Assembly (NCBI GenBank): GCA_050613775.1
Contig: JBODTK010000150.1
Coordinates: 124,001 to 188,000 of the forward strand
Reading direction: 5' to 3'
DNA from: Neocallimastix sp. 'constans'
Taxonomy: Eukaryota
DNA length: 64,000 nucleotides
Position numbers and translations under genes: made by a program. Below, piece after piece: positions 17,512 through 57,939 of this stretch. Positions within the stretch are counted from its first letter, which is position 1. The number at the start of each line of letters is the position of its first letter. The notes beneath the pieces are model-generated. The model was not told the DNA's origin, did no database searches, and worked only from the letters and a program-made list of their open reading frames with translations.

Positions 17512-17583
17512 TGGAGATATCGGGGATCGAACCCGAGGCTTCTTGCATGCAAAGCAAGCACTCTACCACTGAGTTATATCCCC
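17512..17583 (-). tRNA. trnA: tRNA-Ala (anticodon TGC)
   Basis: Reverse complement GGGGATATAACTCAGTGGTAGAGTGCTTGCTTTGCATGCAAGAAGCCTCGGGTTCGATCCCCGATATCTCCA folds as a cloverleaf with a G3:U70 pair, TGC anticodon and GGTTCGATCC T-loop. Confidence 0.96.
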
Positions 17584-17597
17584 AGTTGTTATTTTTG

Positions 17598-19901: not shown

Positions 19902-20933
19902 TTTGTGGTAAAGAATGAATTAATAATCTTTATTTTATTATTAATAATTCTTTACTAAATTGTACTTTCCTATATTCTTCATAACCTAAACCTCATTGTA
20001 AATTTAATTTATTTTGATATAAATTAATTTTAATTTGTAAATAATGTAAATAAATTTTAATTAATCACTTTATTGTTATATTATTAAATATATGTATATA
20101 TTAAAATACAATTGTAAATATTAAAATTATACTTTTAAGATACTAAATTATTAAAAATATTAATTAAATATTATTATAAAAATTATTATAAAATTATTAA
20201 AATTATTAATTAAATATTATTCTAAAAATTATTATAAATTATTAATATTATAAAATTATTAAAATTATTAAATATTATTATAAAAATTTATTTATTATAA
20301 CTATTAAATATTATTATAAAATTATTAAGATTATTAATTAAATTTATTATTAAAAATTATTATTAAAAATTATTACTTATTATAAAAATTATTATTTAAA
20401 TATTATCAAATTTATTAATTAAATATTATAAAAATTTTATTTTATTTTGAAAATAATTACAAGTATTATTTAAAATAATTAAAGATTATTAAATTTATTA
20501 TATTAATCTTTAAAAACAATTTATTTAACTTAAAAATATTAAAGAAAATAGTAAAAACTATTTTCTATATATTTATTTTATAATTATTTTTAATTAAATT
20601 ATATTTGAATATTATATTATTATATTTATAAAAATTAAAACAAAAATGAATTATTGATAAAAAATTAATTCAATAATTCTATAAAATTATTTAAATTATA
20701 AACAATTAATTATACTTTAAATTTATAAAAAAATATAAATATTGTAACAATTTCTTAAAAAAAATTAAATATGTGTACTTTAAATAAAAAAAATTTTTAT
20801 ATTAATAAAAAAAAAATAAATAACTTTTAATAAAGAATTATTTTTTTTTTTATTTAAAATCAAAGCAGGGTAATACCCGTCCCCCCCTGCTTGATTTTAA
20901 ATATCTAAGTGTCAACCCCGAGTCTACCAAAAT

Positions 20934-20951
20934 TGGTGGAGATATCGGGGA
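20934..20951 (+). promoter_or_regulatory. Primer-binding site for tRNA-Ala(TGC)
   Basis: tggtggagatatcgggga is the exact complement of the last 15 nt of the 17512-17583 tRNA plus CCA. Confidence 0.93.
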
Positions 20952-23900
20952 AGGCTTTAATTGATTCATGTAGTAATTTAAGTATAATTACTCAACAATT
21001 TTTAGATAAGCTTCCGTCCGAATATGAACCTATTGATATTAGTCGTGGCAGAATTAGGTTGGCAACTAAGAATGATGATTACTCGGAAGGTTATATCATT
21101 CGGGTGCCAGTAAAGATTAATAATCTTGTATTAATGGTTAATTGTAGAATAGTAGAAAAGGAGGATCCTTTTTACGATATTCTAATTAACTTAAAAACCC
21201 AAATTGATTATAATTTGTTTATCCACCCCATTTTATATAGTTTGTGTCAAATTACTCCTGAGGGAGTAATTGACGTTATTGCACCTATTAATAATGATTA
21301 TGAAGATGAAGAAAAGTTGTTGTGTATGATTAAGGCTTTGGATGAGGATTCCAAAAAGAATGATTTAAAGAAAATTGAAGGATTATCTCCAAAGCAATAT
21401 ATTCATCATGAAATTTTCCTAAATACTTTAAATGAAAAATATAAAGATGAAATAATTAAAATTCTGGAGGAGAACTTAGAAATAGTTGCTACTTCTTCAG
21501 AAGAATTAACACCTTCTGATCTTCCTCCACATAAGATTAATTTAATTCCTGGTGCGAAACCAGTTAAGCAAAGGTGCTATAGATTAGTTAAATTTAAGTC
21601 GGATATACTTAAGGAGGAATTAATTAAATTAATTAATAAGAAATTAATTGAACCTTCTTGTTCCGAATGGTCATCGCCAATAGTGTTAGTACCGAAGAAG
21701 AACGGTAAATGGCGATTATGTATTGATTATCGTAAGGTTAATGATTTAACAGTTAAAGATTCTTATTCATTACCTTACATTGATGAGATATTTGATAGTT
21801 TAGATGGGGCACAGATTTTTACAACAATGGATCTTTACTCTGGTTATCATCAAGTTTTGATGGATGAGGAAAGTGTAGAAATTACCACCTTCACCACAAA
21901 ATTTGGTAACTACCAATTCAAGGTTATGCCTTTTGGTTTAACCGGAGCCCCAGCTACATTTCAAAGGGAAATGAATAGGATTCTTTTCCCATTTATAGGA
22001 AAGTTTGTTTTTAACTTTATAGATGATATTTTAATATACTCTAAGAGTATAAAAGAACACATAAGCCACATTAGGCAAGTGTTGGAAGTATTTCGCCAAC
22101 ACAAATTGAAAATTAACATTGAAAAATGTGCCTTTATGCAGACTGAAGTAGAAGTCTTAGGTCATAAGGCATCAGTGAAAGGTTTAAGTCCCCAGGATAG
22201 CAAAATTAAGGCTATCAAGGAGTGGGTAGCACCTGTTGATGTTCATGAATTACGATCTTTTCTTGGAGCAGTAGGATATTATAGAAACTTTATTGATAAA
22301 TATGCTCAAATCTCTGCTCCTTTATGTAAATTATTAAGAAAGAATGTTAAATATAAATGGAATAATGAACATCAACAAAGTTTTGATCTGTTAAAAGAAA
22401 AGTTAATAAATGCTCCAATTTTAAAATATCCAAGTTTTAATCAAAGGTTTATAATTAGAACGGATGCTTCCTATGAAGGTATTGGAGGAGTATTACTCCA
22501 AGAAGATTTAGAAACCAAAAAGGAACATCCAGTTCATTATATAAGTAGAAGTTTAAGTAAAGCCGAGAAAAATTATGGCATTACTGACTTGGAAGGAGCT
22601 GCATTAATTTATTGTATTACTAAGTTGAAATCTTATATATTAGGAAATCCTAATAAAACAGTAGTAATAACAGACCATAAACCTTTAATCAGTTTCTTTA
22701 AAAATAAGGAACCTAATAATGCTAGGCAAGCAAGATGGTGCTTAACTGTTAGTACCCTTGGTGTTGAAATTCAATATCAAATGGGTAAGAAAAATGTGTT
22801 AGCCGATGCATTATCTAGAATGAAGAAAAGAGCTGATTCTGTGGTATTGGCAACTAAGTTAACTTCAAAGGAAGAAGAAGAGTTGCTTTCAAAAACTATT
22901 AAAGACTTTATAAATGAAAAATTTGTTACGATAGATGGTGAAGATTACTTTGTTGATGGTAATGACTATCGTAAATTAATTACTGATCAAACGGAAAGAG
23001 TAAAACTTATTTTAGAAGCCCATAAGATAGGTCATGAGGGATATTATAAGACTTATCAAAGGCTTCGTAAAAGTTTTTATTGGAATAATATGGTGATGGA
23101 TATTAAAAGAGTGGTGCAAAGTTGTGACAAGTGTCAGTTGAATAGGTCACAACCATATCCAGAACCTACAGAAAATATTCCAACTAAAGTAGAAGGTCCT
23201 TTTATACATTTGGGTTTAGATATTATTGGACCTTTGATTAAAACGAAGAATAATAATCAATATATTATGGTTGTGGTGGATTACTTCACCAAATGGGTTG
23301 AAGCAGAACCCACGGAAAATATAACATCACAGGATGTGATTAAGTTCTTAATTAATGTGTTTGCTCGTCATGGTGTTCCACAGGTAATAACAACTGACAA
23401 TGGTGTTCAGTTCACCTCGGACATGACGAAAATATTTTTAGATCTCTATGATGTATATGTGAAGTTTATTTCCACATATCATCCTGAAAGTAATGGACTT
23501 ACGGAAAACCGTAATAAAGAGATCGGCAAGTTATTGAGGTTGTTGGGTTCTAAGAATAAGGATTGGGATGAAGTTTTACCATCCGCCTTATGGGCTCTTA
23601 GAACTACCAAAAATAAGGTAACAAAACATTCAAGTTTTGAGTTGGTTTATGGTAGGGAGGATCAGCAGCCTTTTGATATTGCTGCTAGACCTACCAAGGA
23701 TATTAATAAGTCATCGGATGAAGTGTTGTTAGAAAAATTTATAAATCATTACCGATGGACTTTAGAAGCAGCCGAAAATGTTAAAAATGCAAATAAGTAT
23801 TGGGCTGCTAGAAGAGAGGAAAAGAATAGTTTGAATGAAGGAAAAAGAATTAGGGAAGGTGATTTAGTTCTAGTTAGAAATTTTTCAAGAACTAAACTAG

Positions 23901-24040
23901 AACCTTATTTTGTTGGTCCTCTTAAAGTTATAAAAAAACAATTTAATACGGTTACCTTGGCTGATCCAAATTCTGGAATTCAAATGAATAGGAATGTTCA
24001 TTTGAAGAATATAGTCAAGTATAACTCAGCTTCGATGTAG
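20948..24040 (+). CDS. pol: Pol (partial protease, RT, RNase H, integrase), 5'-truncated
   Basis: LIDSCSN protease, WSSPIVLV/RLCIDYR/MPFGL/FIDD RT, TDAS RNase H, HHCC and D,D35E integrase, GPY/F-like KLEPYFVGP; PR-RT-RH-IN order is Ty3/Gypsy. Confidence 0.92.
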   Translation, partial: GKALIDSCSNLSIITQQFLDKLPSEYEPIDISRGRIRLATKNDDYSEGYIIRVPVKINNLVLMVNCRIVEKEDPFYDILINLKTQIDYNLFIHPILYSLCQITPEGVIDVIAPINNDYEDEEKLLCMIKALDEDSKKNDLKKIEGLSPKQYIHHEIFLNTLNEKYKDEIIKILEENLEIVATSSEELTPSDLPPHKINLIPGAKPVKQRCYRLVKFKSDILKEELIKLINKKLIEPSCSEWSSPIVLVPKKNGKWRLCIDYRKVNDLTVKDSYSLPYIDEIFDSLDGAQIFTTMDLYSGYHQVLMDEESVEITTFTTKFGNYQFKVMPFGLTGAPATFQREMNRILFPFIGKFVFNFIDDILIYSKSIKEHISHIRQVLEVFRQHKLKINIEKCAFMQTEVEVLGHKASVKGLSPQDSKIKAIKEWVAPVDVHELRSFLGAVGYYRNFIDKYAQISAPLCKLLRKNVKYKWNNEHQQSFDLLKEKLINAPILKYPSFNQRFIIRTDASYEGIGGVLLQEDLETKKEHPVHYISRSLSKAEKNYGITDLEGAALIYCITKLKSYILGNPNKTVVITDHKPLISFFKNKEPNNARQARWCLTVSTLGVEIQYQMGKKNVLADALSRMKKRADSVVLATKLTSKEEEELLSKTIKDFINEKFVTIDGEDYFVDGNDYRKLITDQTERVKLILEAHKIGHEGYYKTYQRLRKSFYWNNMVMDIKRVVQSCDKCQLNRSQPYPEPTENIPTKVEGPFIHLGLDIIGPLIKTKNNNQYIMVVVDYFTKWVEAEPTENITSQDVIKFLINVFARHGVPQVITTDNGVQFTSDMTKIFLDLYDVYVKFISTYHPESNGLTENRNKEIGKLLRLLGSKNKDWDEVLPSALWALRTTKNKVTKHSSFELVYGREDQQPFDIAARPTKDINKSSDEVLLEKFINHYRWTLEAAENVKNANKYWAARREEKNSLNEGKRIREGDLVLVRNFSRTKLEPYFVGPLKVIKKQFNTVTLADPNSGIQMNRNVHLKNIVKYNSASM

Positions 24041-25091
24041 CTTGAGTTTTAGAGGGGGCATCATGGTAAAGAATGAATTAATAATCTTTATTTTATTATT
24101 AATAATTCTTTACTAAATTGTACTTTCCTATATTCTTCATAACCTAAACCTCATTGTAAATTTAATTTATTTTGATATAAATTAATTTTAATTTGTAAAT
24201 AATGTAAATAAATTTTAATTAATCACTTTATTGTTATATTATTAAATATATGTATATATTAAAATACAATTGTAAATATTAAAATTATACTTTTAAGATA
24301 CTAAATTATTAAAAATATTAATTAAATATTATTATAAAAATTATTATAAAATTATTAAAATTATTAATTAAATATTATTCTAAAAATTATTATAAATTAT
24401 TAATATTATAAAATTATTAAAATTATTAAATATTATTATAAAAATTTATTTATTATAACTATTAAATATTATTATAAAATTATTAAGATTATTAATTAAA
24501 TTTATTATTAAAAATTATTATTAAAAATTATTACTTATTATAAAAATTATTATTTAAATATTATCAAATTTATTAATTAAATATTATAAAAATTTTATTT
24601 TATTTTGAAAATAATTACAAGTATTATTTAAAATAATTAAAGATTATTAAATTTATTATATTAATCTTTAAAAACAATTTATTTAACTTAAAAATATCAA
24701 AGAAAATAGTAAAAACTATTTTCTATATATTTATTTTATAATTATTTTTAATTAAATTATATTTGAATATTATATTATTATATTTATAAAAATTAAAACA
24801 AAAATGAATTATTGATATAAAATTAATTCAATAATTCTATAAAATTACTTAAATTATAAACAATTAATTATACTTTAAATTTATAAAAAAATATAAATAT
24901 TGTAACAATTTCTTAAAAAAAATTAAATATGTGTACTTTAAATAAAAAAAATTTTTATATTAATAAAAAAAAAATAAATAACTTTTAATAAAGAATTATT
25001 TTTTTTTTTATTTAAAATCAAAGCAGGGTAATACCCGTCCCCCCCTGCTTGATTTTAAATATCTAAGTGTCAACCCCGAGTCTACCATTTG

Positions 25092-31091: not shown

Positions 31092-31832
31092 TGTGTGGTA
31101 AAGAACGAACATATAATGGATTATTAATTAGAATTTCAACTTACTTTAGAATCCATTATATTATTCTTTACTTAATATTACTTTACTATATTTTCTATAC
31201 TAAAATATTTTCTAAATATATTTTTTTTTATATTTTTATTAAAAGTTTCTAAAATATTATCAATAATTTTATATTTTTATTATTAATATCAATATCTATA
31301 ATTTAACCTTAAATTTTATTATTTTATTAAAGTGTTTATTATCAATATTAATATTTTATTTTTATTTTCAAATATATTATTATATTATTATTATATTGTA
31401 TCAATATTAAACTTGTATTCTTTTTAGTATTTTATTTTATTTTTGAATTGATTATTTTATATTTTTATTCCCCACAAATAAAATCAAATCTTAATTGATT
31501 AATAATAAATATTAAATATATTATAGTTTTAAAATTTATTTTATATAAAATATAAGAATATTATATTAACATTCTTGATTAAAATAACTTTATTTTTCTG
31601 TAAAATCTTTTTAAATTTTGTTTGTTACTTTTCGTATATATTAAATAATTTAGTTTTAGTATATGAAAAATAATATAAAATTATGTAAACAAAATTTATT
31701 AAAATAAAAATACTTATGAATTAGTTAATTTAAATTAATATAAAATTTTAAGTAATTAGTAATAGTAAATATTTTTTTTTAAATATGATAATAAAATGTA
31801 GAAAGGCTTTACATATTTATTTTTTTTCAAAA

Positions 31833-32280
31833 CATAAACATAGACTTGCACATATGGGTACCCATCTCCCATATGGCCATACAGTTATTAATTAACTGTA
31901 AGGTGATGAGTTATTGGCATACTGTATCAGCTTCGCCGCTCTCAATCGTCGTTACACACTGCCCGGAGATGCATTCCTAACGTTCCTACATATATCTCTA
32001 ATGACCACGAGCATCAGAACGGAACCATTAACTCCTCCCTAGTGGGTGTAATCATTGGCGATTGGAAATTTTACAATCATCAAGGTCTATGCTTCAATTC
32101 AAAGCGTAGTATCAGGGTTGGGTGAAATAATCATCTGAGGGAAAGCCTTATGGACATCACGTGTGGTCTCATGATATCCCAGGATAGAAACCTCATCCGA
32201 TTATTTGGTGCCATGCCGAGGATTCGAACCCCGCCCTCTACAGTGACCTGTATCGTCCTAACCGACTGGACCAACATGGC
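31833..32280 (-). mobile_element. tRNA-derived SINE (448 bp) inserted in the 5' LTR of element A
   Basis: Absent from the 3' LTR; 16-bp TSD ttattttttttcaaaa (31817-32, 32281-96); tRNA-like head 32206-32280 with A box TGGTCCAGTCGG and B box GGTTCGAATCC; short TATGTT-type tail. Confidence 0.9.
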
Positions 32281-33308
32281 TTATTTTTTTTCAAAAAGTA
32301 TAAATAAGTGAAGTTTTTCAATAATTAAAATGTAGACAGAAAAATATTGAAAATAAATAATTAAATAAAAAATCTAATAAAACCCAAACCATAACATAAT
32401 TTATGGTGGAGATATCGGGGAATATTAGAAAAATAAAATTTAATATTATTTATTAATTAAATTATTTAACAAAGCCTTGGATATAGATTTCCGGGCTAAG
32501 TTTAACCTACATAGTAATTGGGCTAGTAGGCTCTGGACTGCTGTATTTTATATTGAATACAGTAGCCGTGGTACCCGCGTGGCATGACGCCGTGAAGAGG
32601 CAAGCTGCACGTCAGACAGGGTATACTATCAGATTATCCATAAGTTTTGTTAAATAATAATAATTAATAATTTAATATTAATATTAATAATAATAAAAGT
32701 TATCATAAAAAAAAAAAAAAAAAAAAAAAAAAACTTTGGAAAACTTTAGTTTTTGTAGTAACTTTATTTAATTATAGATTATAGATAAAAAATAATAATA
32801 AAAAAAAATAATAAAAAGTTAACAAATTTACGAAGTTAATATTCGAGTAAGACAGTGTTAGCTTGCAGGATATTAATTTCATAAACTCTTATTTACAATT
32901 TTGCAAGGTTTTGTAGATTGTAAACGCGAGTATCTCAAGGAACAAATCCTTGACAATTAGGCAAATACGCCCTAGAACTATAAAACCTTCACGCTGAAGG
33001 CAACTACACACTTCAACAGGTGATAGTTTGTTCACTCGCGCAGAAAATAAGAGGTGAGTCAGGTTCGATCCCTGATAAAACCCTGGTCATTCTTGCGAAG
33101 TGACGTTAAAATATATAGTTTTTTTTTTATTTTTATTTTAGGCTTTTATAAATTTGTTCGCCTATTATTATTATTATTATTTTTTTTTTTTGCAATAAAA
33201 TAAAAATATATATATTTTTTTTTCCTTTTATTAAAATAATAAATATTTCATTAATAAATTTTTTTTTTAATAAATAATAAATTAAATTTTTCTTTAGTGT
33301 AGAACAAA

Positions 33309-33362
<54 letters not shown>

Positions 33363-34627
33363 TTTTAATTAATGATAAATATTAAAATAATAAGCAAATT
33401 TTTTTTTTTGTAGTACAAATTTTTAATTTTTTTTAAATAAGAATAAATTTTATAAATAAAATTTTTTTTATTAATAATTCTAAATAATAAATTGTAATTT
33501 TTTTTATGTTTATCCGTTTATTTTTTTTTTTAATATATACATGTACAATATATATATATATAGAATATATAAAATTAGATTATTATTATTATTTTTCAAA
33601 TAAGTGTATTATTTTTATGATTTTATATAATTAAATTTTTTTTTTTTATTGAAATTTTCATAATTGAAATTTTTTTTTTTTTTTGTGTGTGTTAAATTTT
33701 CTATTATTCGTTATATAATTAATTAAATTTTAATTAAAAAGAAAAATATAAATAAGCTGTCTTACAACTCTCTACGCGGGATAGTTGAACACCCACACAT
33801 AATACTTTATTGTTTTGATCTTGTTGATACTGGGAAGGATACGTTATTATCTTCTTTATTACTAACAATAAGTTAGCCAAATTAAAAAGAATTTAATATT
33901 GCTACCTTCTTTTTATTAAGTTTCTTAATAATTAACAATCGACATTATCAACTTATCAATAAAGAGCTAAGGGGACTTATTGTAAGAAGGGTTAACAAGC
34001 TATATATTTGATGGTTCAACACTATATAGTTTGGCTTGTATTTTAACTTTTTATTTAATATTTCATTAAATGTTATAACAAAGAATTAATAGAATAATAA
34101 ATATATACAAAAAAGAAATAAAAATAAAAATAAATATATATTATTATTATTATTTAAGTATTTATACAATTTGTTTTATGTTATATTAATTATTTTAATA
34201 AAGGAAATAAATATATTAAATAAAATTAAATAAAGAAGTTATTACTACAAATAAATAAAAAAAAAATTAAGATATACATATTCTGTGTATTAATGCTTAA
34301 GAGAATATAATAAATATTAAAATTCATAATAAAAAGCTTCAGATTTTCAAATTGCGTTTTTGAGTCTGAATTAATTTTTTTTTTTGTTTCAGATTTTCGG
34401 AGGGTGTTTTCGAGTCTGAATTAATTCATTAGATTTTCAGAGAGAGATTCTGAGTCTGAATTATTATTGGAATAAAGAATTGGATTGTCAGAGGGTTTTC
34501 TGAGTCCATAATTATATTATTATAAAACAAAGATAAATTTATTTTTTTTGTTATTAAATATATTTTTAAAGTAAACATAATTTTTAAATTGGATATCATA
34601 GCATTAATACCATTTTTAAATTTTCAA

Positions 34628-35521
34628 ATGGCTGAAAATAAAATCAATTTTAAAGAATTAAAAAAGGAATTAAAAGATATCGAGAAAATTTCAAAGGAAA
34701 ATCTCGATATCAAATCTTGGGAATCAGAAATCCGATTATGGATAAAACTTGAGGAAGTTACTGATCCCAAAAAGATTTTTACCGCCTGCTTACTCACGTC
34801 TACTGGAGAGCCTCGCGAAGTTATCCAGGATTTAATTGAAAGTTACAGTACCGATTCTGAATCAGAAAGTGAGGACGAAGAAGAAGAAGAATCTGATTCA
34901 GAAGAAAAGAAAAAAGATGAATATCCTTCCTTAAAGGAAATTGTAGAAGCACTAGAAACTTTTTATGGTCTTAAAGAAGACCAGAATATGTTACTTCGTG
35001 AGCTCCGTGCCTTAAGAATTAAAAGAAATGAGCGAGTAAAAGACTTTAATACTCGTTTCCGATCCATATATTTGAAATTAGATAAGAAAAGAAAGAAGCG
35101 AGTCAGTGTTCTCGATTATATTGATGCTCTTAGGAACAATGAAGAAGCTTGGAAAAGGGTCTCCCTTAAGGATGACATTTCTTTAAATCGGGCGTTTGAC
35201 ATTGCCGAAAAAGTTGATAGAGTAATGAATTTGAGACCCTCAAAAGAGTACTCAACTGAAATTGTCAACCCAAGAATAAATATCAGGAATAATTATCAAA
35301 ACAACAGAAAAGTAGTAAGGGAGAATTATGAAGTTAGAACCCCAAAAAGAAATAAAGATTACGATTTGGAGGACTTAACAAAAAAAATGAAAAATCTTAC
35401 CATTAAAGCCTGTTTTTATTGTAGCGATCCAGGACATTTGCAGTATAATTGTCCTAAGTTAAATGCAATTATTCAAGAAAATAAGAAACGGTTATATAGT
35501 GGAAAATCTTTAAACCACTAA
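34628..35521 (+). CDS. gag: Gag of element A
   Basis: CCHC zinc knuckle CFYCSDPGHLQYNC; homologous to 57001-57939; ATG at 34628 preferred over the upstream TTG. Confidence 0.9.
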   Translation: MAENKINFKELKKELKDIEKISKENLDIKSWESEIRLWIKLEEVTDPKKIFTACLLTSTGEPREVIQDLIESYSTDSESESEDEEEEESDSEEKKKDEYPSLKEIVEALETFYGLKEDQNMLLRELRALRIKRNERVKDFNTRFRSIYLKLDKKRKKRVSVLDYIDALRNNEEAWKRVSLKDDISLNRAFDIAEKVDRVMNLRPSKEYSTEIVNPRINIRNNYQNNRKVVRENYEVRTPKRNKDYDLEDLTKKMKNLTIKACFYCSDPGHLQYNCPKLNAIIQENKKRLYSGKSLNH

Positions 35522-35561
35522 AAGGGAGAGGAAGCACTCCCTATAAAAATAAAATAGCTTC
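35509..35561 (+). promoter_or_regulatory. -1 programmed ribosomal frameshift signal (U UUA AAC plus H-type pseudoknot)
   Basis: Slippery heptamer in the gag frame, stem AGGGAG/CTCCCT, loop GAAGC pairing with downstream GCTTC; the -1 frame is open. Confidence 0.85.
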
Positions 35562-36050
35562 ATTACAATACAAATCCATTCCTATTAGTACAAATGATTA
35601 TAATAAGGAAGAAAAAGAAGATGCTTCCTATACTAATGAAACTCACAAAGAATCCGATAATGAGAATGATGTAGAATTTATAGTTAGTGCGACAAAAAGG
35701 AAGTTGACGACTAACGATGAAACTAGTGAAAATAATGAAAAGAGACAACGTAAAAGTCTCAAAGATAATCCTACCCCTATAACAACTCCTGCAATAAGAA
35801 AGATAAAAGAGAAAGAAATAGAAAATAGAATAATTGTTAAAAATAAAAATCAACTACATCCTTCGATAATGGCGCAGCCTAATATAAATATTGAGAAAGC
35901 CAAAGAAAAACAAATTCGAAATAAAGAAAGAGCTAACTTTGGAAATAACAAGGGAAAAGGGAAGGAAAGGGAGGATAATATTACTATAAGAGAAAAGCAA
36001 AGTCCGGATTCTTCAAAACAAAGAAATAGCATCAGTACACTAGTGATAAA

Positions 36051-39000
36051 ATGCATCAACGATTAAATAAATTAATTGATAATGAAAAAGATAAAATTAT
36101 TAAAACAAAACAAATCAATGAAATGGAAGTTATTGAAGTTCCTGAAAAGCTTAATGACGAAGGTCATGAGAATATTACATTACAGAAGCTCATAGATTTT
36201 CAAGAGCCTAAAGAAAAAGCAACAATTAGTAGAACGCTTAGGAACATCAAGATGTGTAAGGATCAGGAAGAATATGATGTTTTACAAGATTTGAATGAAA
36301 CCAAGTGTAATATTAGTTTCGGTCAGCTCCTCAATGTTTCTCCAAAAGTCAGAAGTCAAGTAAGTCAAGGATTAAAATTAGAAAAGCCTGAAAAGAAAAT
36401 AATAGGTGCATTAAACAATACTATTGCTGCTGCTACTTTGGTAAATAATATTGATCACTCTTATATTAGCAAAAGTAAGGAAACCTCAGAAGAAGATATT
36501 GCCATGGTTGATGTAACAGTAGATGAAATTCCTGGTAAAGCACTAATTGATTCTTGTAGCAATCTCAATGTTATCACAAAAAAATTTTATGAGAAATTAC
36601 CTGGAAATTATGAAGAAGTAGGTATTAGTCGTGGAAGGATACGTTTAGCGACTAAGAATGATGAGTATTCGGAAGGAATCATTGTACGAATACCTGTTAA
36701 GATTAATGATTATAAAATGATAGTAGATTTTCGTATAATTGATGATGATAACCCATTTTATGATTTGTTGATTAATTTTCAAACTCAAGTAGAACACAAT
36801 CTTTTTATCCATCCTATAAGATATAGTTTATGTCAATTTAATTCTCAAGGACTAATCGACGTTATAGCTCCTATTAATAATAATTCCCAAGAAGAAGAAA
36901 AATTAGTATGTATAGTAAGGAAAATACTTGAAGATGAAGACACAACTAATGAATTAAAGAAACTTGAAGGTCTATCTCCGCAAGAGTATATCCATGATGA
37001 AAAATTTTTAGCAAGTCTTTGTAAAGATTATAAAGATGTAATAGTAAAATTACTTGAAGAAAACTTGGACATTATAGCGACATCTTCTGAAGAATTAACA
37101 CCGTCAGACTTGGCCCGTCATAAAATTAACTTGAAAGCGAACGCAAAACCTGTTAAACAAAGATGTTACAGAGTAACCAAATTTAAATCGGATATTATTA
37201 AAGAAGAACTAATTAAACTTATTAAGAAAAAGCTAGTTGTACCATCTTATTCAGAATGGTCTTCACCTGTTGTTGTGGTCCCAAAGGCTAATGGAAAATG
37301 GAGATTGTGTGTGGACTACCGCAAGGTGAATGATCTAACCGAAAAAGACTCTTATGCCCTTCAATATATTGACGAGATATTTGACAGTCTAGATGGTGCC
37401 AAAATCTTTACTACTATGGATCTATACTCAGGTTACCATCAAATCCTAATGGACGAAGAAAGTGTTGAAATAACCAGTTTTACAACCAAATTTGGCAACT
37501 ACCAATTCAAAGTTATGCCTTTCGGATTAACTGGAGCTCCGGCTACCTTCCAACGGGAAATGAATAGAATTTTATTTCCTTTAATCGGAAAATGTGTTTT
37601 CAACTTTATTGATGATATACTTATATATTCAAAAACTGTCGAAGAACATATCCAACACATAAAGCAGGTATTAGCAATCTTCAAGGAACATAAATTAAAA
37701 ATTAATATTGAAAAATGTCACTTTATGCAAACGGAAGTTGAAGTTCTTGGTCACAAGATTTCTACTAAGGGTCTTAGTCCTCAAAATAGTAAAATTGAAG
37801 CAATTAAAGCCTGGAAAGAACCCACGAATATACATGAGTTAAGATCATTCTTAGGTGCTGTAGGATATTATAGGAACTTTATAAATGAATATGCTCAAAC
37901 CTCAGCTCCTCTTTGTAAGCTATTAAGAAAAGGCGTAAAATATAAATGGAATAATGAACAAAAACAAAGTTTTACCAAATTAAAAGAAAAATTAATTAAT
38001 GCTCCTATTTTAAAATATCCTGATTTTTCCAAAGAATTCATTATTCGAACAGATGCATCATATGAAGGTATTGGTGGAGTTTTATTGCAGAAAGACGAAT
38101 CGGAAATAGAACACCCGATTCATTTCATTAGCCGTAGCTTAACCAAAGCAGAAAAGAATTATGGAATAACCGATTTGGAAGGAACGGCTTTATATTATTG
38201 TATTACTAAATTAAAACCTTATATTATGGGAAGCCCCTTTAGAACCATAGTTTTTACAGATCACAAACCTCTACTAGGTTTATTTAATAATAAGGAACCG
38301 AATAATGCACGACAAACAAGATGGTGTTTGACTGCAAGTATGCTAAAAGTGGATATTCGCTATGAGCAAGGTAAAAAGAATGTAGTAGCCGACGCTTTAT
38401 CTAGAATGAAGAACGATAAAGAACAAAAGGTATTAGCTATAAAAACGAATAAAGATGATGAAAATGATTCACTTTCTAAAGTAATTAAAGAATTTATTGA
38501 AGAAAAATTTACAAAGATTGATGGTATAGATTATTTTATAGATGGAAATAATTATAGAAAACTTGTTACCGAAACAAATGAAAAACTAAAATTAATTCTC
38601 GAAGCACATCATGTTGGCCATGAAGGTTATTATAAAACATATCAAAGACTTAGAAAAAGTTACTACTGGAATGATATGGTCAACGATATAAAACGGATAA
38701 TTTCAAAATGCGAAAAATGTCAGTTAAATCGCCCTCAGCCATATCCAGAACCAACCGAAAACATTCCAACAGAAGTTGAAGGCCCTTTTACTCATCTTGG
38801 ACTTGATATTATTGGTCCCTTAATAAAGACTGGTAATAAAAACCAATATATCATTGTTGCGGTGGATTATTTCACAAAGTGGGTGGAGGCTGAACCTACT
38901 GAGAATATTATATCTAAGGACATCATTAAGTTTTTAATAAATGTTTTCGCTAGACATGGAGTTCCTCAAGTCATTACAACGGATAATGGCGTTCAATTCA

Positions 39001-39626
39001 CATCGGATATGACTAAAATATTCCTGGACTTATATGATGTTTACGTAAAATTTACCACTACCTATCACCCAGAAAGTAATGGATTGGTTGAAAATAGGAA
39101 TAAAGAAATTAGTAAATTATTGAGATTACTTGGTGAAGAAAATAAAGACTGGGATGAAGTATTACCTTCAGCCTTGTGGGCCCTTAGAACTACAAAGAAT
39201 TCTGTAACCAAACATTCTAGCTTCGAATTAGTTTATGGTCGTGAGGATCAACAGCCTTTCGACATTGCTGCTAGACCTACACAAGGAGTGAATAAATCTT
39301 CAGATGAAATTCTTTTAGAAAAATTTATCTCACATTATAGGTGGACCATGGAAGCAGCTGAAAATGTAAAGAACGCAAGTAAATATTGGGCCAATCGAAG
39401 GGAAGAAAAAAATAGCATGAAAAATTCCAAAAACATAAGAATCGGTGATTTAGTTCTTGTTCGAAATTTTAGTCGTTCTAAATTAGAACCTTATTTTGTC
39501 GGTCTTTTAAAAGTAATAAAAAAACAATATAATACCGTAACACTTGCGGACCCAAATACTATGATTCAAATGAATCGTAATGTTCATTTGAAAAATATAG
39601 TAAAGTATAACTCAGCTATAGATTAG
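36051..39626 (+). CDS. pol: Pol of element A (PR-RT-RH-IN); N-terminal part 35509-36066 is in another frame
   Basis: Complete Ty3/Gypsy motifs; one frame break near 36030-36066. Confidence 0.92.
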   Translation: MHQRLNKLIDNEKDKIIKTKQINEMEVIEVPEKLNDEGHENITLQKLIDFQEPKEKATISRTLRNIKMCKDQEEYDVLQDLNETKCNISFGQLLNVSPKVRSQVSQGLKLEKPEKKIIGALNNTIAAATLVNNIDHSYISKSKETSEEDIAMVDVTVDEIPGKALIDSCSNLNVITKKFYEKLPGNYEEVGISRGRIRLATKNDEYSEGIIVRIPVKINDYKMIVDFRIIDDDNPFYDLLINFQTQVEHNLFIHPIRYSLCQFNSQGLIDVIAPINNNSQEEEKLVCIVRKILEDEDTTNELKKLEGLSPQEYIHDEKFLASLCKDYKDVIVKLLEENLDIIATSSEELTPSDLARHKINLKANAKPVKQRCYRVTKFKSDIIKEELIKLIKKKLVVPSYSEWSSPVVVVPKANGKWRLCVDYRKVNDLTEKDSYALQYIDEIFDSLDGAKIFTTMDLYSGYHQILMDEESVEITSFTTKFGNYQFKVMPFGLTGAPATFQREMNRILFPLIGKCVFNFIDDILIYSKTVEEHIQHIKQVLAIFKEHKLKINIEKCHFMQTEVEVLGHKISTKGLSPQNSKIEAIKAWKEPTNIHELRSFLGAVGYYRNFINEYAQTSAPLCKLLRKGVKYKWNNEQKQSFTKLKEKLINAPILKYPDFSKEFIIRTDASYEGIGGVLLQKDESEIEHPIHFISRSLTKAEKNYGITDLEGTALYYCITKLKPYIMGSPFRTIVFTDHKPLLGLFNNKEPNNARQTRWCLTASMLKVDIRYEQGKKNVVADALSRMKNDKEQKVLAIKTNKDDENDSLSKVIKEFIEEKFTKIDGIDYFIDGNNYRKLVTETNEKLKLILEAHHVGHEGYYKTYQRLRKSYYWNDMVNDIKRIISKCEKCQLNRPQPYPEPTENIPTEVEGPFTHLGLDIIGPLIKTGNKNQYIIVAVDYFTKWVEAEPTENIISKDIIKFLINVFARHGVPQVITTDNGVQFTSDMTKIFLDLYDVYVKFTTTYHPESNGLVENRNKEISKLLRLLGEENKDWDEVLPSALWALRTTKNSVTKHSSFELVYGREDQQPFDIAARPTQGVNKSSDEILLEKFISHYRWTMEAAENVKNASKYWANRREEKNSMKNSKNIRIGDLVLVRNFSRSKLEPYFVGLLKVIKKQYNTVTLADPNTMIQMNRNVHLKNIVKYNSAID

Positions 39627-40488
39627 CTTGAGTCTTAGTGGGGGCATCTTGGTAAAGAACGAACATATAATGGATTATTAATTAGAATTTCAACTTACTT
39701 TAGAATCCATTATATTATTCTTTACTTAATATTACTTTACTATATTTTCTATACTAAAATATTTTCTAAATATATTTTTTTTTATATTTTTATTAAAAGT
39801 TTCTAAAATATTATCAATAATTTTATATTTTTATTATTAATATCAATATCTATAATTTAACCTTAAATTTTATTATTTTATTAAAGTGTTTATTATCAAT
39901 ATTAATATTTTATTTTTATTTTCAAATATATTATTATATTATTATTATATTGTATCAATATTAAACTTGTATTCTTTTTAGTATTTTATTTTATTTTTGA
40001 ATTGATTATTTTATATTTTTATTCCCCACAAATAAAATCAAATCTTAATTGATTAATAATAAATATTAAATATATTATAGTTTTAAAATTTATTTTATAT
40101 AAAATATAAGAATATTATATTAACATTCTTGATTAAAATAACTTTATTTTTCTGTAAAATCTTTTTAAATTTTGTTTGTTACTTTTCGTATATATTAAAT
40201 AATTTAGTTTTAGTATATGAAAAATAATATAAAATTATGTAAACAAAATTTATTAAAATAAAAATACTTATGAATTAGTTAATTTAAATTAATATAAAAT
40301 TTTAAGTAATTAGTAATAGTAAATATTTTTTTTTAAATATGATAATAAAATGTAGAAAGGCTTTACATATTTATTTTTTTTCAAAAAGTATAAATAAGTG
40401 AAGTTTTTCAATAATTAAAATGTAGACAGAAAAATATTGAAAATAAATAATTAAATAAAAAATTTAATAAAACCCGAACCATAACATG

Positions 40489-51226: not shown

Positions 51227-51244
51227 ATTTTAGGATTCGTTACA

Positions 51245-51988: not shown

Positions 51989-53008
51989 TGTAACGAATCT
52001 TAAAAATGTTAAGGTTCGGAGAGAGGGAAAAATAAAAATAAGTATTAATATAAACAACAAAAAAAATAAACAAACAAGAAAATTAATAAACAAAATAAAT
52101 TTTTGTTTTTATAAATCCTTTATTAAATTTTTTTTTATTTAAAAAAAATTACAATATTAAATTACAATATAAAAAATACAATTTTTTTTACTGTTATTTA
52201 TATTTTTTTTTTTTCTTAAAATAATAGAAATGGTAAAGCCATTTCTTTGTATAATAAAAATTAATTATTAAATATTTTATATTAATTTTTTATTATTAAT
52301 ATAATTATTATTTAACTTATAATAAATAATACTTATATATTAATCTATTACTAATTATTTATTACTAATCTACTTAATTATATATTTTAAAAGACAAATT
52401 TTTTTATTTTACAGAAGTTAATTCTGTGGTTTAGTAATATTTATTTAATCCTAAAGTTTAATTTTACTAAGTTTAGAAAAATAATATTATTTAAATTATT
52501 AATATAAAAATTATAATCATTTCATCAAATTTATAATATAATATTTATAATAAAACATATAATAATAATATAATTATTTCCTTTTATGTTTAATCTTTTA
52601 TTAGTAATCATTAATACAATTTTTTTAATTTGGAATTTTCCAAAGAAATAATTGATATTGATAAGTTTAATATTAATAAAAGAAATATTGATAAGATTTT
52701 GATAAACTATAAAGAAAATTGATAAAATAAACTATATAATATTGATAAGGATTTTAATAATAATAAAATATAGATAAGAATAATAAAGGTAGTATAGATA
52801 AGGAATTAATTTTAAATATACTTTTTTAAATAGTATAATTTAATTTGTACTAATTAGGAATATAGATTAATTTATTAGAATATAGAAAGTTCCAAAAGAA
52901 TAAAGAATCAAATAATTTGTTTAAGGGTTAAATGAATCATTTAAGATGCATAACCAAAAGAACATTATTTGGGCATTCTTTATCAAGATGCCCCCACTAA
53001 GACTCAAG

Positions 53009-56000
53009 CTATACAGAAGCTGAGTTAAACTTTACTATATTCTTTAAATGGACATTGCGGTTCATTTGGATTCCAGATTTAGGGTCCACAAGAGTTACCG
53101 TATTGAATTGTTTCTTTAATACTTGAAGGGGTCCAACAAAATATGGTTCAAGTTTGGTTCTAGAAAAATTTCGGACTAAGACTAAGTCTCCAGGCCTAAT
53201 ATTTTTAGCTTGATTCATGCTGTTCTTGCTTTCTCTTCTATTGGCCCAATATTTATTCGCATTTTTCACATTTGCAGCGGCTTCTGTTGTCCATAAGTAG
53301 TGGTTAACAAACTTTTCGAGTAAGATCTCATCAGATGACTTGTTTATTCCTATAGTAGGTCTTGCAGCGATATCGAAAGGTTGCTGGTCTTCTCTTCCAT
53401 ATACCAGCTCGAAACTTGAATGATTAGTGACAGAATTCTTGGTAGTACGAAGGGCCCATAAAGCAGAAGGTAGTACTTCATCCCATTCCTTGTGCTTTTC
53501 ACTTAGAAGTCGAAGTAATTTTCCTATCTCTTTGTTTCTATTCTCTGTGAGTCCATTAGTTTCAGGGTGATAAGTGGTACTAAATTTCACGTATACATCA
53601 TAGAGATCGAGGAATATCTTGGTCATATCGGAAGTAAATTGGACACCATTGTCCGTAGTAATCACTTGAGGTACTCCATGGCGTGCAAAAACATTGATAA
53701 GGAATTTTATAACTTCTTTAGAGGTTACATTTTCTGTAGGTTCGGCTTCAACCCACTTGGTGAAATAATCGACTACCACCATAATATATTGATTGTTGTT
53801 GGAAGTTTTCTCTAAAGGTCCAATTATATCAAGACCAAGGTGAGTAAAGGGTCCTTCCACTTCAGTTGGAATATCTTCTGTTGGTTTTGGATATGGTTGA
53901 GGTTTATTCAATTGGCACTTTTCACATTTAGCTATAATCCTCTTAATGTCGTTTACCATACCATTCCAGTAATAGCTTTTCCTAAGTCGTTGATAAGTTT
54001 TGTGATAACCTTCATGACCGATTTGGTGGGCTTCTAGAATTAGCTTTAATTTTTCGTTAAGATCAGTAACTAATTTTCGGTAGATATTTCCATCTATGAA
54101 ATATTCAACACCATCGATTATAGTAAACTTTTCTTCAATAAATTCTTTTACTACTTTAGATAAAAGAGATTCGTCGACTTCTTTTGTAATTTTGGTAACT
54201 AATACCTTCTTGTCAGTGTCATTCTTCATTCTTGATAGGGCATCTGCAATAACATTCTTTTTACCTGATTCATAGCAGATTTCAACCCCCAAAAGGTTAG
54301 CAGCCATGCACCATCTAGTTTGTCTAGCATTTGTTGGTTCTTTCTTGTTGAACAGTCCGACTAAGGGTTTATGGTCTGTATATATAATAGTTTTATGAGG
54401 ATTTCCCATTATATATGATTTGAATTTAGTTAAGCAGTAGAATAAGGCTGTTCCTTCTAAATCAGTTATTCCGTAATTTTTCTCACTTTTGGTTAGTGTT
54501 CGACTCGTATAATGAATTGGGTGTTCTTTGTTAGTTTCTTCATTCTTTTGTAGTAGTACACCACCTACTCCATCATAGGACGCATCAGTTCTTATAATAA
54601 ACTCTTTATTGAAAGAAGGGAATTTTAGAATTGGGGCATTCATTAATTTTTCCTTAAGCATTTTAAAGCTTTTCTCTTGTTCATCTTTCCATTGGTACTT
54701 AACACCTTTTCGCAATAACTTACAAAGAGGAGCTGTGATCTGTGCATATTTATCGATAAAAGTTCTGTAGTATCCAATTGCTCCTAAGAAGGATCGTAAT
54801 TCATGGAGATCAGTAGGTGCTATCCATTTTTTAATAGCTTCTATTTTGCTATCCAGAGGACTTAAGCCTTTGTCAGATACCTTGTGACCTAGAACTTCTA
54901 CTTCAGATTGCATGAAAGAACATTTTTCAATGTTGATCTTGAGTTTATGTTCCTTGAATACGTCTAATACTTTCTTAATGTGATCGAGATGTTCTTCAAC
55001 TGTTTTTGAATAGATCAAAATATCGTCAATGAAGTTAAAAACAAATTCACCAATGTAAGGAAAGAGAATCTTATTCATTTCTCTTTGGAAGGTAGCAGGA
55101 GCTCCAGTTAATCCGAAAGGCATTACCTTGAATTGGTAATTACCAAACTTAGTAGTAAAACTGGTTACTTCAACGCTTTCTTCATCCATTAGTATTTGAT
55201 GGTAACCAGAATAGAGATCCATTGTAGTAAAAATTTTGGCTCCATCTAAGCTATCGAAAATTTCATCAATATTTGGCAAAGAGTAGGAGTCTTTAATGGT
55301 AACATCATTTACTTTTCGGTAGTCGATACACATTCTCCACTTTCCATTATGTTTAGGAACTAAAACTACTGGTGAGGACCACTCTGAATACGACGGTTCA
55401 ATTAGTTTCTTATTGATCAATTTGGTAAGTTCTTCTTTTAGAATATCAGATTTATATTTGGTTACTCTATAATATTTCTGTTTAATTGGTTTTACACCAG
55501 GTTTTAATCTAATTTTATGTGGGGATAAGTCAGAAGGAGTTAATTCTTCAGATGAGGTGGCTATAATTACTAAATAATCCTCAAGCAGTTGTATAATTTG
55601 TTCTCTGAACATTTTATTAAGGGTGTCAGTGAACTTTTCGTTATGAATATATTCTTTAGGAGGTAAACCTTCTATTTTCTTAAGATCGTTGTTGTTTTCA
55701 TCAGGTATTGCTTTTAATACACACATTAATTTTTCTTCTTCATCATAAGTGTTGTTAATTGGAGCTATCACATCAATAAGTCCATTATCATTCATATAAC
55801 AGAGACTATACAATGTTGGATGGATAAATAATTTATAATCTACTAAAGTTTTTAAATTAATAAGAATATCATAGAACGGGTCTTCTTTATCAACTACTCT
55901 GCATTTAGCTATCATTTCAAAGTTATTAATTTTTAAGGGAATTTGGACAATGTAATCTTCTGAGTATTCTTCATTTTGGGTAGCTAATCGAATTCTACCG

Positions 56001-56899
56001 CAACTAACATCGATAGGTTCATAAGTTGTAGGAAGTTTATCCAAAAATTGCTGTGTTACGATATTAAGGTTACTACAGGAGTCCATTAAAGCTTTTCCTT
56101 TTACTCCATCTACCTCAACGTCTACCATTGCGATATCATCTTCATTAGGTTCTATATTCTTACTCTTATATGTATGATCAATATTATTTACTAAGATAGT
56201 CGTAGCACAAACATTGTTTACAGCACCAGAAATTTTTGTTTGGTCTTTTTCAAATTTTAAGCCTTGTATGACTTTGGTCTTTACTTTTGGAGACACATCT
56301 AGTAGTTGGGCTAAGGTAATATTACATTTGATGTTATTCAGATCTTCAATAACATCATAAGGTTTTTGATTCGCAATCATTTGAAGAATTCTTGGTACTC
56401 TTGCAGTTTTGGTTATAGAAGATTTATTCTTAATTTTATCATTCACCAATTTTGTTAAAGTTTGTTCTGTTGTATTATCAGGAGTATTATTTGAAGTAAT
56501 ATCAATAATATTATTAGTTTCTGATTTGTCAATTTCAATAGTTTTAACTTGTCTTTTTGAAGTATTAGCTCGTTCTTTATCACGTAGCTCTTTTTCTTTT
56601 TCTTTTTCCTTATTAATTAAAGGTTGCGTAAGTATTGATGGGTGAATCTGACTCCGAGTTGATTTTTGCTTTGGGTTTTCCATTAGTTCATTTTCTTTTT
56701 TCTTTCTTAATGCAGGTGTTGCAATTGGTCTAGGATTATCTTTAAGACTTCGATGTATTTTCTTTCCTGGACTAGATTCTAGTTTGTCATCTTTTTTTCG
56801 TTTAATTGCAGCGCATAAATAACTTTCATTTTCTTCTAAGTCAGATTTACTTACTTTTTCAGTATGAAATTCTTCTTCATTTTCTGATTCTGATTCCAT
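53009..56899 (-). CDS. pol: Pol of element B (expressed as Gag-Pol by -1 frameshift from 57013)
   Basis: Uninterrupted PR-RT-RH-IN; frame is open upstream to the slippery site. Confidence 0.94.
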   Translation of the reverse strand: MESESENEEEFHTEKVSKSDLEENESYLCAAIKRKKDDKLESSPGKKIHRSLKDNPRPIATPALRKKKENELMENPKQKSTRSQIHPSILTQPLINKEKEKEKELRDKERANTSKRQVKTIEIDKSETNNIIDITSNNTPDNTTEQTLTKLVNDKIKNKSSITKTARVPRILQMIANQKPYDVIEDLNNIKCNITLAQLLDVSPKVKTKVIQGLKFEKDQTKISGAVNNVCATTILVNNIDHTYKSKNIEPNEDDIAMVDVEVDGVKGKALMDSCSNLNIVTQQFLDKLPTTYEPIDVSCGRIRLATQNEEYSEDYIVQIPLKINNFEMIAKCRVVDKEDPFYDILINLKTLVDYKLFIHPTLYSLCYMNDNGLIDVIAPINNTYDEEEKLMCVLKAIPDENNNDLKKIEGLPPKEYIHNEKFTDTLNKMFREQIIQLLEDYLVIIATSSEELTPSDLSPHKIRLKPGVKPIKQKYYRVTKYKSDILKEELTKLINKKLIEPSYSEWSSPVVLVPKHNGKWRMCIDYRKVNDVTIKDSYSLPNIDEIFDSLDGAKIFTTMDLYSGYHQILMDEESVEVTSFTTKFGNYQFKVMPFGLTGAPATFQREMNKILFPYIGEFVFNFIDDILIYSKTVEEHLDHIKKVLDVFKEHKLKINIEKCSFMQSEVEVLGHKVSDKGLSPLDSKIEAIKKWIAPTDLHELRSFLGAIGYYRTFIDKYAQITAPLCKLLRKGVKYQWKDEQEKSFKMLKEKLMNAPILKFPSFNKEFIIRTDASYDGVGGVLLQKNEETNKEHPIHYTSRTLTKSEKNYGITDLEGTALFYCLTKFKSYIMGNPHKTIIYTDHKPLVGLFNKKEPTNARQTRWCMAANLLGVEICYESGKKNVIADALSRMKNDTDKKVLVTKITKEVDESLLSKVVKEFIEEKFTIIDGVEYFIDGNIYRKLVTDLNEKLKLILEAHQIGHEGYHKTYQRLRKSYYWNGMVNDIKRIIAKCEKCQLNKPQPYPKPTEDIPTEVEGPFTHLGLDIIGPLEKTSNNNQYIMVVVDYFTKWVEAEPTENVTSKEVIKFLINVFARHGVPQVITTDNGVQFTSDMTKIFLDLYDVYVKFSTTYHPETNGLTENRNKEIGKLLRLLSEKHKEWDEVLPSALWALRTTKNSVTNHSSFELVYGREDQQPFDIAARPTIGINKSSDEILLEKFVNHYLWTTEAAANVKNANKYWANRRESKNSMNQAKNIRPGDLVLVRNFSRTKLEPYFVGPLQVLKKQFNTVTLVDPKSGIQMNRNVHLKNIVKFNSASV

Positions 56900-56960
56900 A
56901 CTTATTACTTCTTGAAGGTGATTTTGTTGTGGTTCTTCTAAGGTTGATTGAAATTTGACT

Positions 56961-57013
56961 GAAGCAATTTTATTGACGATGGGAGTGCTTCTTCTCCCTT
57001 TTAGTGATTTAAA
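56961..57013 (-). promoter_or_regulatory. -1 frameshift signal (U UUA AAU plus pseudoknot)
   Basis: Stem GGGAG/CTCCC, loop GAAGCA pairs with TGCTTC; the -1 frame runs into pol. Confidence 0.87.
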
Positions 57014-57939
57014 TTTTTATTTTCGAAATATTCTTGGCGATTTTTATCAACAATCGCTTTAAGCTTAGGACAGTTATTCTGATAATGACCTTTTTCCGTA
57101 CAGAAGAAACATGTACTAATAGTTAAGTTTTTCATTCGTTTTGTTAGATCTTCAACATCTGAATCTTTTACTGGCTTTCTTGGTTCTGAGAAAGATTTCT
57201 GTTTAAATTTCTTTTTATTAAAATTGGAGGGCTTATTATAGTGAGGATAAGTATTTTCGTCTGAATCATAAGCAATTTTAGGAATAAGTCTATCTACTTT
57301 CTCCGCTATTTCAAAGGCTTTATTGAGAGAAATATTATCCTTAAGGGAAACTCTTTTCCATGCCTCTTTATTATTTTGTAATGAGTCGGCATAGTCTAAT
57401 ACACTAATTCGTTTTCTTCTTTTAATATCCAACTTGTGGTAAAGAGTTCGGTAGCGTATATTAAAATCTTTCACTTTTTCGTTCCTTTTAATTTTAAGTG
57501 CACGAAGTTCTCTGAGTAGAACATTTTGATCTTCTTTTAGGCCATAGAATTTTTCTAATTCGTCCACAATTTTGTCTAAACTTGGGAAATTATGAATATT
57601 GTCATCACCGATGTTATTATCTTCGTCATTATCATCATCACTAAAGATATTATCATTTTCCATATCTTGGATGATTTCTCTTATTTCACCGGTAGTAGTC
57701 AAAATACAAGCTATAAATATTGTTTCTGGATCAACCACTTGCTGATATCTGATCCATAATTTTAGTTCAGAGGCCCAGGATTTTATATCTAAGTTGTCTT
57801 TACTAAGTTTTTCTATTCCCTTAAGTTCCTTCTTTAAGTCTTTAAAATTAATTCGACTATTATTTATAGCTACTGGACTGGGAATAGAGGGTGATGCACT
57901 AGACGAGCCACCACTATCAGAAGAAGAGTTTTCCGACAT
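57001..57939 (-). CDS. gag: Gag of element B
   Basis: Zinc knuckle CFFCTEKGHYQNNC; homologous to gag of element A. Confidence 0.9.
   Translation of the reverse strand: MSENSSSDSGGSSSASPSIPSPVAINNSRINFKDLKKELKGIEKLSKDNLDIKSWASELKLWIRYQQVVDPETIFIACILTTTGEIREIIQDMENDNIFSDDDNDEDNNIGDDNIHNFPSLDKIVDELEKFYGLKEDQNVLLRELRALKIKRNEKVKDFNIRYRTLYHKLDIKRRKRISVLDYADSLQNNKEAWKRVSLKDNISLNKAFEIAEKVDRLIPKIAYDSDENTYPHYNKPSNFNKKKFKQKSFSEPRKPVKDSDVEDLTKRMKNLTISTCFFCTEKGHYQNNCPKLKAIVDKNRQEYFENKNLNH

Follow-up and report, generated by a model that had tools for sequence, protein, structure and literature searches.

Evidence for a selected RNA fold, a predicted four-way junction, between the primer-binding site and gag of two distantly related Ty3/Gypsy retrotransposons

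What is the compact folded RNA that recurs behind the primer-binding site (PBS) of two retrotransposons, and what could it do for the elements that carry it? This question was raised by a stretch of 64,000 nucleotides from Neocallimastix sp. 'constans' (contig JBODTK010000150.1, positions 124,001 to 188,000), here called the window, which has a very high A/T content and contains several LTR elements. The original prediction, made from the sequence, was that the leaders of two of these elements share a covarying multi-way-junction RNA.

The two elements, A on the plus strand and B on the minus strand, are full-length Ty3/Gypsy retrotransposons that are distantly related to each other. They are assigned to this class because their pol domains stand in the order reverse transcriptase (RT), RNase H and integrase (Pfam), with a protease-like LIDS motif upstream that was read from the translation; paired LTRs, PBS, polypurine tract and a short target-site duplication are present as further hallmarks. 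In A, the 5' LTR (31096..32397, +) is interrupted by a tRNA-headed insertion, and its comparison with the 3' LTR (39650..40487, +; TGTG target-site duplication) gives 836 identities, 2 mismatches and 16 gap positions. The PBS (32404..32421, +), 18 nt long, is the complement of the 3' end, CCA included, of the tRNA-Ala(UGC) encoded in the window (17512..17583, −), the likely primer species. The gag gene (34628..35521, +) gave no Pfam match on this copy and encodes a C-terminal CCHC-type zinc knuckle pattern, of which C296, H304 and C309 are invariant and C299 nearly so in 39 Gag sequences; pol (35500..39626, +), with RT, RNase H and integrase, is split into two frames, the break lying near 36030-36066. 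In B, the 5' LTR (59289..60268, −) is identical to the 3' LTR (52007..52986, −; TTTT target-site duplication) at 979 of 980 positions, and the PBS (59265..59282, −) has the same sequence as that of A. The gag of B (57001..57939, −) shares 55% identity with the gag of A, and its pol (53009..57016, −), a single open frame, shares 73% (858 of 1176 residues). A third, related element, C (19906..25087, +; LTRs differing at 3 of 1024 positions, TTTG target-site duplication), has lost leader, motif and gag altogether, its PBS at 20934 running straight into protease codons, with the join at a short look-alike stretch (20934-20960, +). The Gag relatives that carry a source name (10 of 78) come from Orpinomyces, Piromyces and Neocallimastix, and the public runs holding this stretch include metagenomes of animal faeces; the motif sits in the 5' leader of a Ty3/Gypsy family, likely one of anaerobic gut fungi.

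Several other features were observed around these elements. The 448-nt insertion in the 5' LTR of A (31833-32280, −) has a tRNA-like head and a target-site duplication of about 16 nt, and is likely a tRNA-derived SINE. The upstream flank of the tRNA-Ala gene carries a solo LTR that starts about 10 nt away (window 17512-17596), a setting reminiscent of the targeting of Ty3 to Pol III genes. At 26539, a PBS-like site of a different type behind an LTR marks the remnant of another LTR element, and B itself is inserted into a frame (51230-51973, −) of an LTR-element remnant whose Pol_BBD match is weak and below the Pfam cut-off. At the gag-pol junction (35509-35537, +, in A; 57012-56983, −, in B), UUUAAAC in A and UUUAAAU in B are followed by a 5-6 bp hairpin, AGGGAG...CUCCC, together likely forming a -1 frameshift site.

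In both A and B the motif is a predicted four-way RNA junction (P1-P4) of about 160 nt on a long basal helix, in line with the multi-way junction originally proposed. It lies after the tRNA-Ala primer site, at a distance of 40 nt in A and about 185 nt in B, which refines the proposed position just downstream of the PBS. Its description as a GC-rich island is refined as well, the GC content of the core being 46% and 41% in the two copies. In A (all +), the basal helix P0 closes the domain (32461-32475/32644-32658; pair probabilities 0.76-1.0) and the core covers 32478..32640. P1 is made of P1a (32478-83/32635-40) and P1b (GAU/AUC, 32486-88/32628-30), the latter resting on the comparison with B and being absent from A's own minimum-energy fold. 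J1/2 (32489-32505), which reads UUYCGGGYUAA and then 5-6 variable nucleotides, is followed by the P2 hairpin (32506-32530), J2/3 (CUCU, 32531-34), the P3 hairpin (32535-32567) and J3/4 (with UGG, 32568-71). The P4 arm comprises P4a (32572-76/32619-23), P4b-c (32577-84/32606-12), a bulge, a 4x4 internal loop (32585-88/32602-05) and a terminal stem of 3 bp (32589-91/32599-601), and J4/1 (UACU, 32624-27) completes the junction. Copy B occupies 58882..59082 (−), with P0 at 59082-75/58889-82 and 59071-66/58898-93, P1a at 59058-53/58904-899, P1b at 59052-50/58908-06, P2 at 59033-58999, P3 at 58994-58963, P4a at 58959-54/58918-13 and the terminal stem at 58942-40/58933-31. Among the unpaired segments, GGYU of J1/2 and AGCU of the internal loop are the sole 4-bp complement found at equal offset in A and B, a candidate pseudoknot (32494..32497 with 32603-32606, +; 59044-41 with 58929-26, −) in which the C/U change still pairs with G.

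The words said to be shared by the two leaders were each found once per copy, in the expected order and on the transcribed strand of both elements: TTYCGGGYTAA (32489 in A, 59049 in B), CTCTGG (32531, 58998), TGGT (32569, 58962), CATGA-N-GCCGT (32583, 58948), AGGC-R-AGCTG (32598, 58934) and ATACTAYC (32623, 58913). The three stems singled out as covarying are paired in both copies. Global alignment places A and B 6.7 SD above 5000 dinucleotide shuffles of B, with 0/5000 reaching the score, and five control islands gave z values of -0.5 to 0.6 in the same test. A chain of shared words of at least 4 letters was reached by 1 of 1000 shuffles, and the chain of words of at least 5 letters was not significant (62 of 1000). 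Both copies fold more stably than their shuffles (z of -5.05 for A and -4.15 for B; 0/200 shuffles each).

Detection of one copy from the other is dependent on structure, because a paired model matches B and an unpaired one does not. A covariance model made of A's sequence and ten helices retrieved B with 50.2 bits and E 6.9e-11 over the 64 kb on both strands, a result to be read with P1b and the base of P3 having been chosen with B in view and with E-values of such A-derived models being rough; the score gap is wide, the runner-up reaching only 12.2 bits in the same search. The same sequence deprived of its pairs left B unreported at E<=1, and neither blastn nor nhmmer retrieved B from A. Model searches identified no third copy in the window (next best 13.8 bits) and had no match in element C. 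RNAalifold run on a MAFFT alignment of both copies misaligned the stems and was set aside.

Pairing has been preserved while the letters have changed. In the fitted alignment, 15 of 45 pairs are changed on both sides between A and B, including four of the five in P4a, and pairing is kept in 83 of 85 cells, as opposed to 33-42% in controls with the partners slid; these counts, drawn from two full sequences in an alignment fitted to them, are descriptive and carry no significance test. Positions identical between A and B amount to 45/84 among the paired and 34/46 among those of junctions or internal loop. The aligned hairpin-loop positions are also identical in 14 of 17 cases, so that with two sequences a conservation specific to the junctions is not cleanly separated. 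The background divergence is high: fourfold-degenerate sites of pol are identical at 102 of 265 (38%), close to the 34% expected at saturation. The surrounding leaders are unalignable, as had been noted by eye, since all 12 comparisons of other segments stayed at z<=1.2; the motif is thus the sole part of the leader found to be kept. The best local match between the leaders beyond the motif (score 77, shuffle maximum 70) was rejected as a mere stretch of A/T runs. Taken with the failure of the unpaired model, the covarying pairs and the 50.2 bits of the paired one support the view that the motif is a real and, as originally proposed, selected RNA fold, with conserved junction nucleotides.

An explanation without any RNA function is highly improbable. 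Enhancers and insulators do occur in the 5' UTRs of insect Gypsy elements, gypsy, ZAM and Idefix among them (PMC3383448), and the two strands of the motif fold about equally well (z of -3.6/-5.4 for A and -5.6/-5.5 for B), which means that folding energy does not give the choice of strand and that the sense strand is favoured only because of U-A to U-G and G-C to G-U changes. A DNA element, or a leftover of ancestral similarity, is nevertheless hard to reconcile with pairing preserved through changing letters, with the failure of the model that lacks pairs, with synonymous sites near saturation and with tandem protein-binding repeats not being found in the motif.

Sibling copies of A provide a further view of the same positions. 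They were taken from public contigs placed on A (X2, X4, X5, X10, X14, X15), and among the changes listed 24 substitutions fall inside the motif, those outside it being excluded from the count: 10 at unpaired and 14 at paired positions. Six of these 14 form three reciprocal compensatory pairs, namely 32536/32566 (G-C to A-U), 32543/32560 (G-C to A-U) and 32545/32558 (A-U to U-A), whose depths are equal or near-equal within X4 and X14. Two more produce G-U wobbles, and the change at 32589 has its counterpart in a loose end with ACC/GGT in place of GCC/GGC, giving a fourth compensatory pair. The remaining five (32572, 32575, 32591, 32645 and 32646) have no listed partner change; the partners of 32572 and 32575 lie at the ends of the carrying contigs, where changes go unlisted. 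In other loose ends the P1a strands are replaced by CCGTAC and GTACG. No substitution is listed in J1/2, J2/3, J3/4 or J4/1, with the same proviso for contig edges, and there is one low-depth loss of a single letter at 32493. The letters proposed as conserved are therefore shared by A and B, but several of them vary in siblings: CATGA also appears as CAAGA or CATAA, GCC/GGC as ACC/GGT, CTCTGG as CTCTGA, TGGT as TGGC and AAGC once as ATGC. The earlier consensus was too strict, given the variation of the sibling loose ends (CAAGA, CATAA, ATGC). RNA runs account for 6 of 24 among the runs listed and contain 0.52-0.75 of the words of 32400-33100; X15, the single RNA run placed, has a 345-nt contig over 32821-33126 and none over the motif.

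The search in Rfam that the original prediction had proposed returned no credible match to any family. In the whole window, Rfam 15 at E<=1 matched only tRNA; with lax filters, the A region gave three matches at E 1.8-5.9 and 10-16 bits, against thresholds of 75-80, and the B region none. The original failure to recognise a hammerhead, HDV, twister or hairpin ribozyme was borne out, as none of these families in Rfam 15 matched. The hammerhead core is built from CUGANGA and GAAA around a three-way junction, and CUGANGA is absent from both strands of both copies. In HDV-like ribozymes two pseudoknots are nested, with characteristic words in L3 and J4/2; GCUAA is present in the sense strand of A only and absent from B, and the L3 word in the antisense strand of A only. 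No family model of the hairpin, twister, twister-sister, pistol or hatchet ribozymes matched, and the core words of the hairpin, pistol and twister-sister types do not occur together, on either strand, in both copies, a pistol-like word being located only in the A/U basal stem of A.

Searches beyond the window gave the following. The motif pattern had no match in viral contigs. In metagenome contigs, with a pattern that was too strict for siblings bearing ACC/GGT or CAAGA, it had 43, none of which showed any more of the motif than the words searched for; the best model score, 17.8 bits, was confined to that part. A looser pattern met at least 120 viral loci, and the two-copy model matched 0/120. 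Locus searches based on Gag confirmed the motif in 0/600, 0/600, 0/119 and 0/97 candidates. No description of it was found in the literature searched on RNAs of anaerobic-fungal and Gypsy retroelements; subscription papers and supplements (repeat libraries, RNA-motif tables) could contain one. The motif is best filed as an undescribed RNA motif working like a known kind of retroelement leader signal, and could readily be proposed as a new Rfam family.

Which kind of signal this might be is suggested mainly by position. The retroviral psi of HIV-1 and MLV lies between PBS and gag, consists of a cluster of helices with exposed purines and is read by a Gag with CCHC. Like psi, the motif occupies a structured 5' region behind the PBS and ahead of gag, forms a helix cluster with predicted exposed purines and belongs to an element whose Gag has a CCHC pattern; unlike psi, it has no shared self-complementary loop and no Rfam match, and its conservation resides in the junctions and the internal loop instead of terminal tetraloops. 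Because the motif sits right after the PBS, recognition by Gag for packaging is favoured, and the CCHC pattern kept by Gag counts for this reading as well. On these grounds the leading, if tentative, proposal is that the motif is a psi-like signal, bound by the zinc knuckle of Gag, through which the element would select its own genomic RNA for packaging. In HIV-1, Ty1 and Ty3, signals for tRNA annealing, dimerisation, cyclisation and packaging lie in a structured 5' end (PMC11381356). In Ty1, packaging drops to 15% when nt 237-380 are deleted, and Gag binds a 5' pseudoknot (PMC4974528). The 5' RNA ends of Ty1 and Ty3 resemble the motif in the class of element, in being PBS-adjacent and structured and in being G-richer than the A-rich genome; their packaging region, 5' pseudoknot and PAL6 dimer site extend into gag coding sequence (PMC4974528 and PMC11381356). 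In contrast, the motif is non-coding, 1-2 kb before gag, a discrete predicted four-way junction and without a shared palindrome.

Some observations limit this packaging reading. No palindrome of 6 or 8 nt is common to A and B at homologous positions; their 6-nt palindromes lie at different, paired places, and the only shared ones, CAUG and AGCU, both vary in siblings. This lack of a common palindrome of 6 nt makes a classical kissing-loop dimer site less likely, and no dimer-initiation loop of the type of Ty3 PAL6 (PMC11381356, in part) is present. Element C, which integrated with a matching target-site duplication yet lacks the motif, would speak against a need for it in packaging, although the deletion may date from reverse transcription or from a time after insertion and so may postdate packaging. 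Of the functions put forward together by the original prediction, packaging or dimerisation, IRES and ribozyme, position favours packaging, and a classical dimer site, a start-proximal IRES and a ribozyme are all weighed down.

The main rival, a role in translation, is doubtful: the domain would recruit ribosomes internally or let them jump the basal helix, after which they would reach gag by scanning an AUG-poor leader. In its favour are leaders that run 2206 nt (A) and 1325 nt (B) past the PBS and a domain of -65 to -70 kcal/mol, which would likely block plain scanning and would need to be entered or skipped. Sense AUGs are depleted in these leaders (9 against 26.5±3.9 expected in A, 4 against 16.2±3.3 in B; antisense 20 against 26 and 11 against 12.4), but this is equally compatible with cap-dependent scanning, and two of five background stretches likewise have too few on one of their strands (7 against 15.3, in a stretch itself behind another PBS-like site, and 18 against 29.6). 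In both A and B the first AUG after the PBS falls within the motif, where it starts a frame of 3 codons, M-x-P-stop; this candidate for a conserved upstream frame was rejected, since sibling loose ends (CAAGA, CATAA) no longer have it. Some errantiviruses contain IRES sequences, and the leaders resemble those of insect gypsy and Idefix in being long, structured Gypsy 5' UTRs (PMC3383448, partial text). In these two elements, by contrast, the motif is distant from the start codon of gag, and the 1.0-2.0 kb in between argue against a start-proximal IRES. Also to be considered is an element for the nuclear export or trafficking of unspliced genomic RNA, like the retroviral or MusD-type RNA transport elements, the latter of which feature a kissing loop. 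Since such elements lie mostly toward the 3' end, and since no sequence or Rfam match was found, this reading is unlikely; in its favour, a long A/U-rich leader may hold cryptic splice signals, and RNA transport elements are multi-helix folds of retroelements (PMC4588558, in part).

The architecture also invites comparison with catalytic RNAs. Its size, four-way junction, kept junction residues, freely changing stems and candidate pseudoknot resemble small ribozymes, and retroelements often carry ribozymes, likewise compact conserved folds in untranslated regions: R2 and L1Tc have HDV-like ones, and hammerheads occur in Penelope repeats and in the LTRs of retrozymes (PMC6765202, section 11). 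The cases described there sit at element ends or in terminal repeats, whereas the motif is inside the element, between primer site and coding region, which argues against a ribozyme. No Rfam ribozyme matched despite the lax filters, the core words were not jointly present, and a cut at the motif would sever the template from the 5' end that carries the primer. A self-cleaving or self-processing ribozyme of an undescribed kind, cutting genomic RNA to yield a subgenomic message or for regulation, is accordingly rather improbable, and the same low probability attaches to its specific form, in which the junction and the GGYU:AGCU pseudoknot would form the catalytic centre of a new class of ribozyme, processing gut-fungal Gypsy genomic RNA from inside the leader to give a separate Gag message. 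A switch in reverse transcription, with J1/2 mimicking the tRNA T-arm and competing for the U5 that pairs with the T-arm of the primer, is very improbable. B's J1/2 and tRNA-Ala have UCGGGUU in common, and in A (3' LTR), B and C the end of U5 pairs over 6-7 bp with the T-arm, as counted without a shuffle control and in the manner of a primer-activation signal (40470-40480, +, in A; 59295-59305, −, in B; 20912-20925, +, in C), the 5' LTR copy of A having a mismatch in this site. A 5' pseudoknot is needed for reverse transcription in Ty1 (PMC4974528, in part). Against this, J1/2-U5 duplexes do not exceed their shuffles, of which 89, 311 and 256 out of 500 did as well, and the pairing is outside the six best sites in either element. 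Pairing of J1/2 with U5 was not supported, nor was pairing with a common site in another part of the element.

If the packaging reading is followed, the A/U-rich basal helix would raise the domain out of the low-complexity leader, and P2 and P3 would serve as spacers in which pairing matters and sequence does not. The junction strands (UUYCGGGYUAA, CUCU, UGG and UACU) and the P4 internal loop might then come together in a compact tertiary core, possibly closed by the candidate GGYU:AGCU pseudoknot, and Gag would find unpaired purines exposed on this core. Ribosomes would either go through the domain or bypass it, and would then scan the AUG-poor leader as far as gag. The cis-acting RNA folds of LTR retrotransposons have been mapped by probing single elements, for example Ty1 and Ty3. 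A covarying non-coding motif shared across nearly saturated elements constitutes a small, bounded target for asking by what means a Gypsy Gag selects its RNA, or ribosomes translate a 2-kb leader, and its two natural versions permit cheap parallel assays of cleavage, ribosome entry and Gag binding. Were cleavage to prove true, the motif would define a new class of ribozyme.

Other parts of the two elements also show structure or repetition. The leader of A has two more folded islands, at 32820-33115 and 33750-34040 (+; z of -5.88 and -4.19), without counterpart in the leader of B. The first of them is covered by the contig of the RNA run X15, and sibling changes in it agree only in part with the predicted fold. 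Short imperfect repeats stand just before gag, two copies of about 30 nt in B (58230-58310, −) and several GAGTCTGAATTA-type units in A (34330-34515, +), the two sets being unrelated in sequence. Directly before the polypurine tract, and overlapping the end of pol, a hairpin AACTCAGCT...AGCTTGAGT is kept in all three elements (39610-39649, +, in A; 53028-52987, −, in B; 24023-24063, +, in C).
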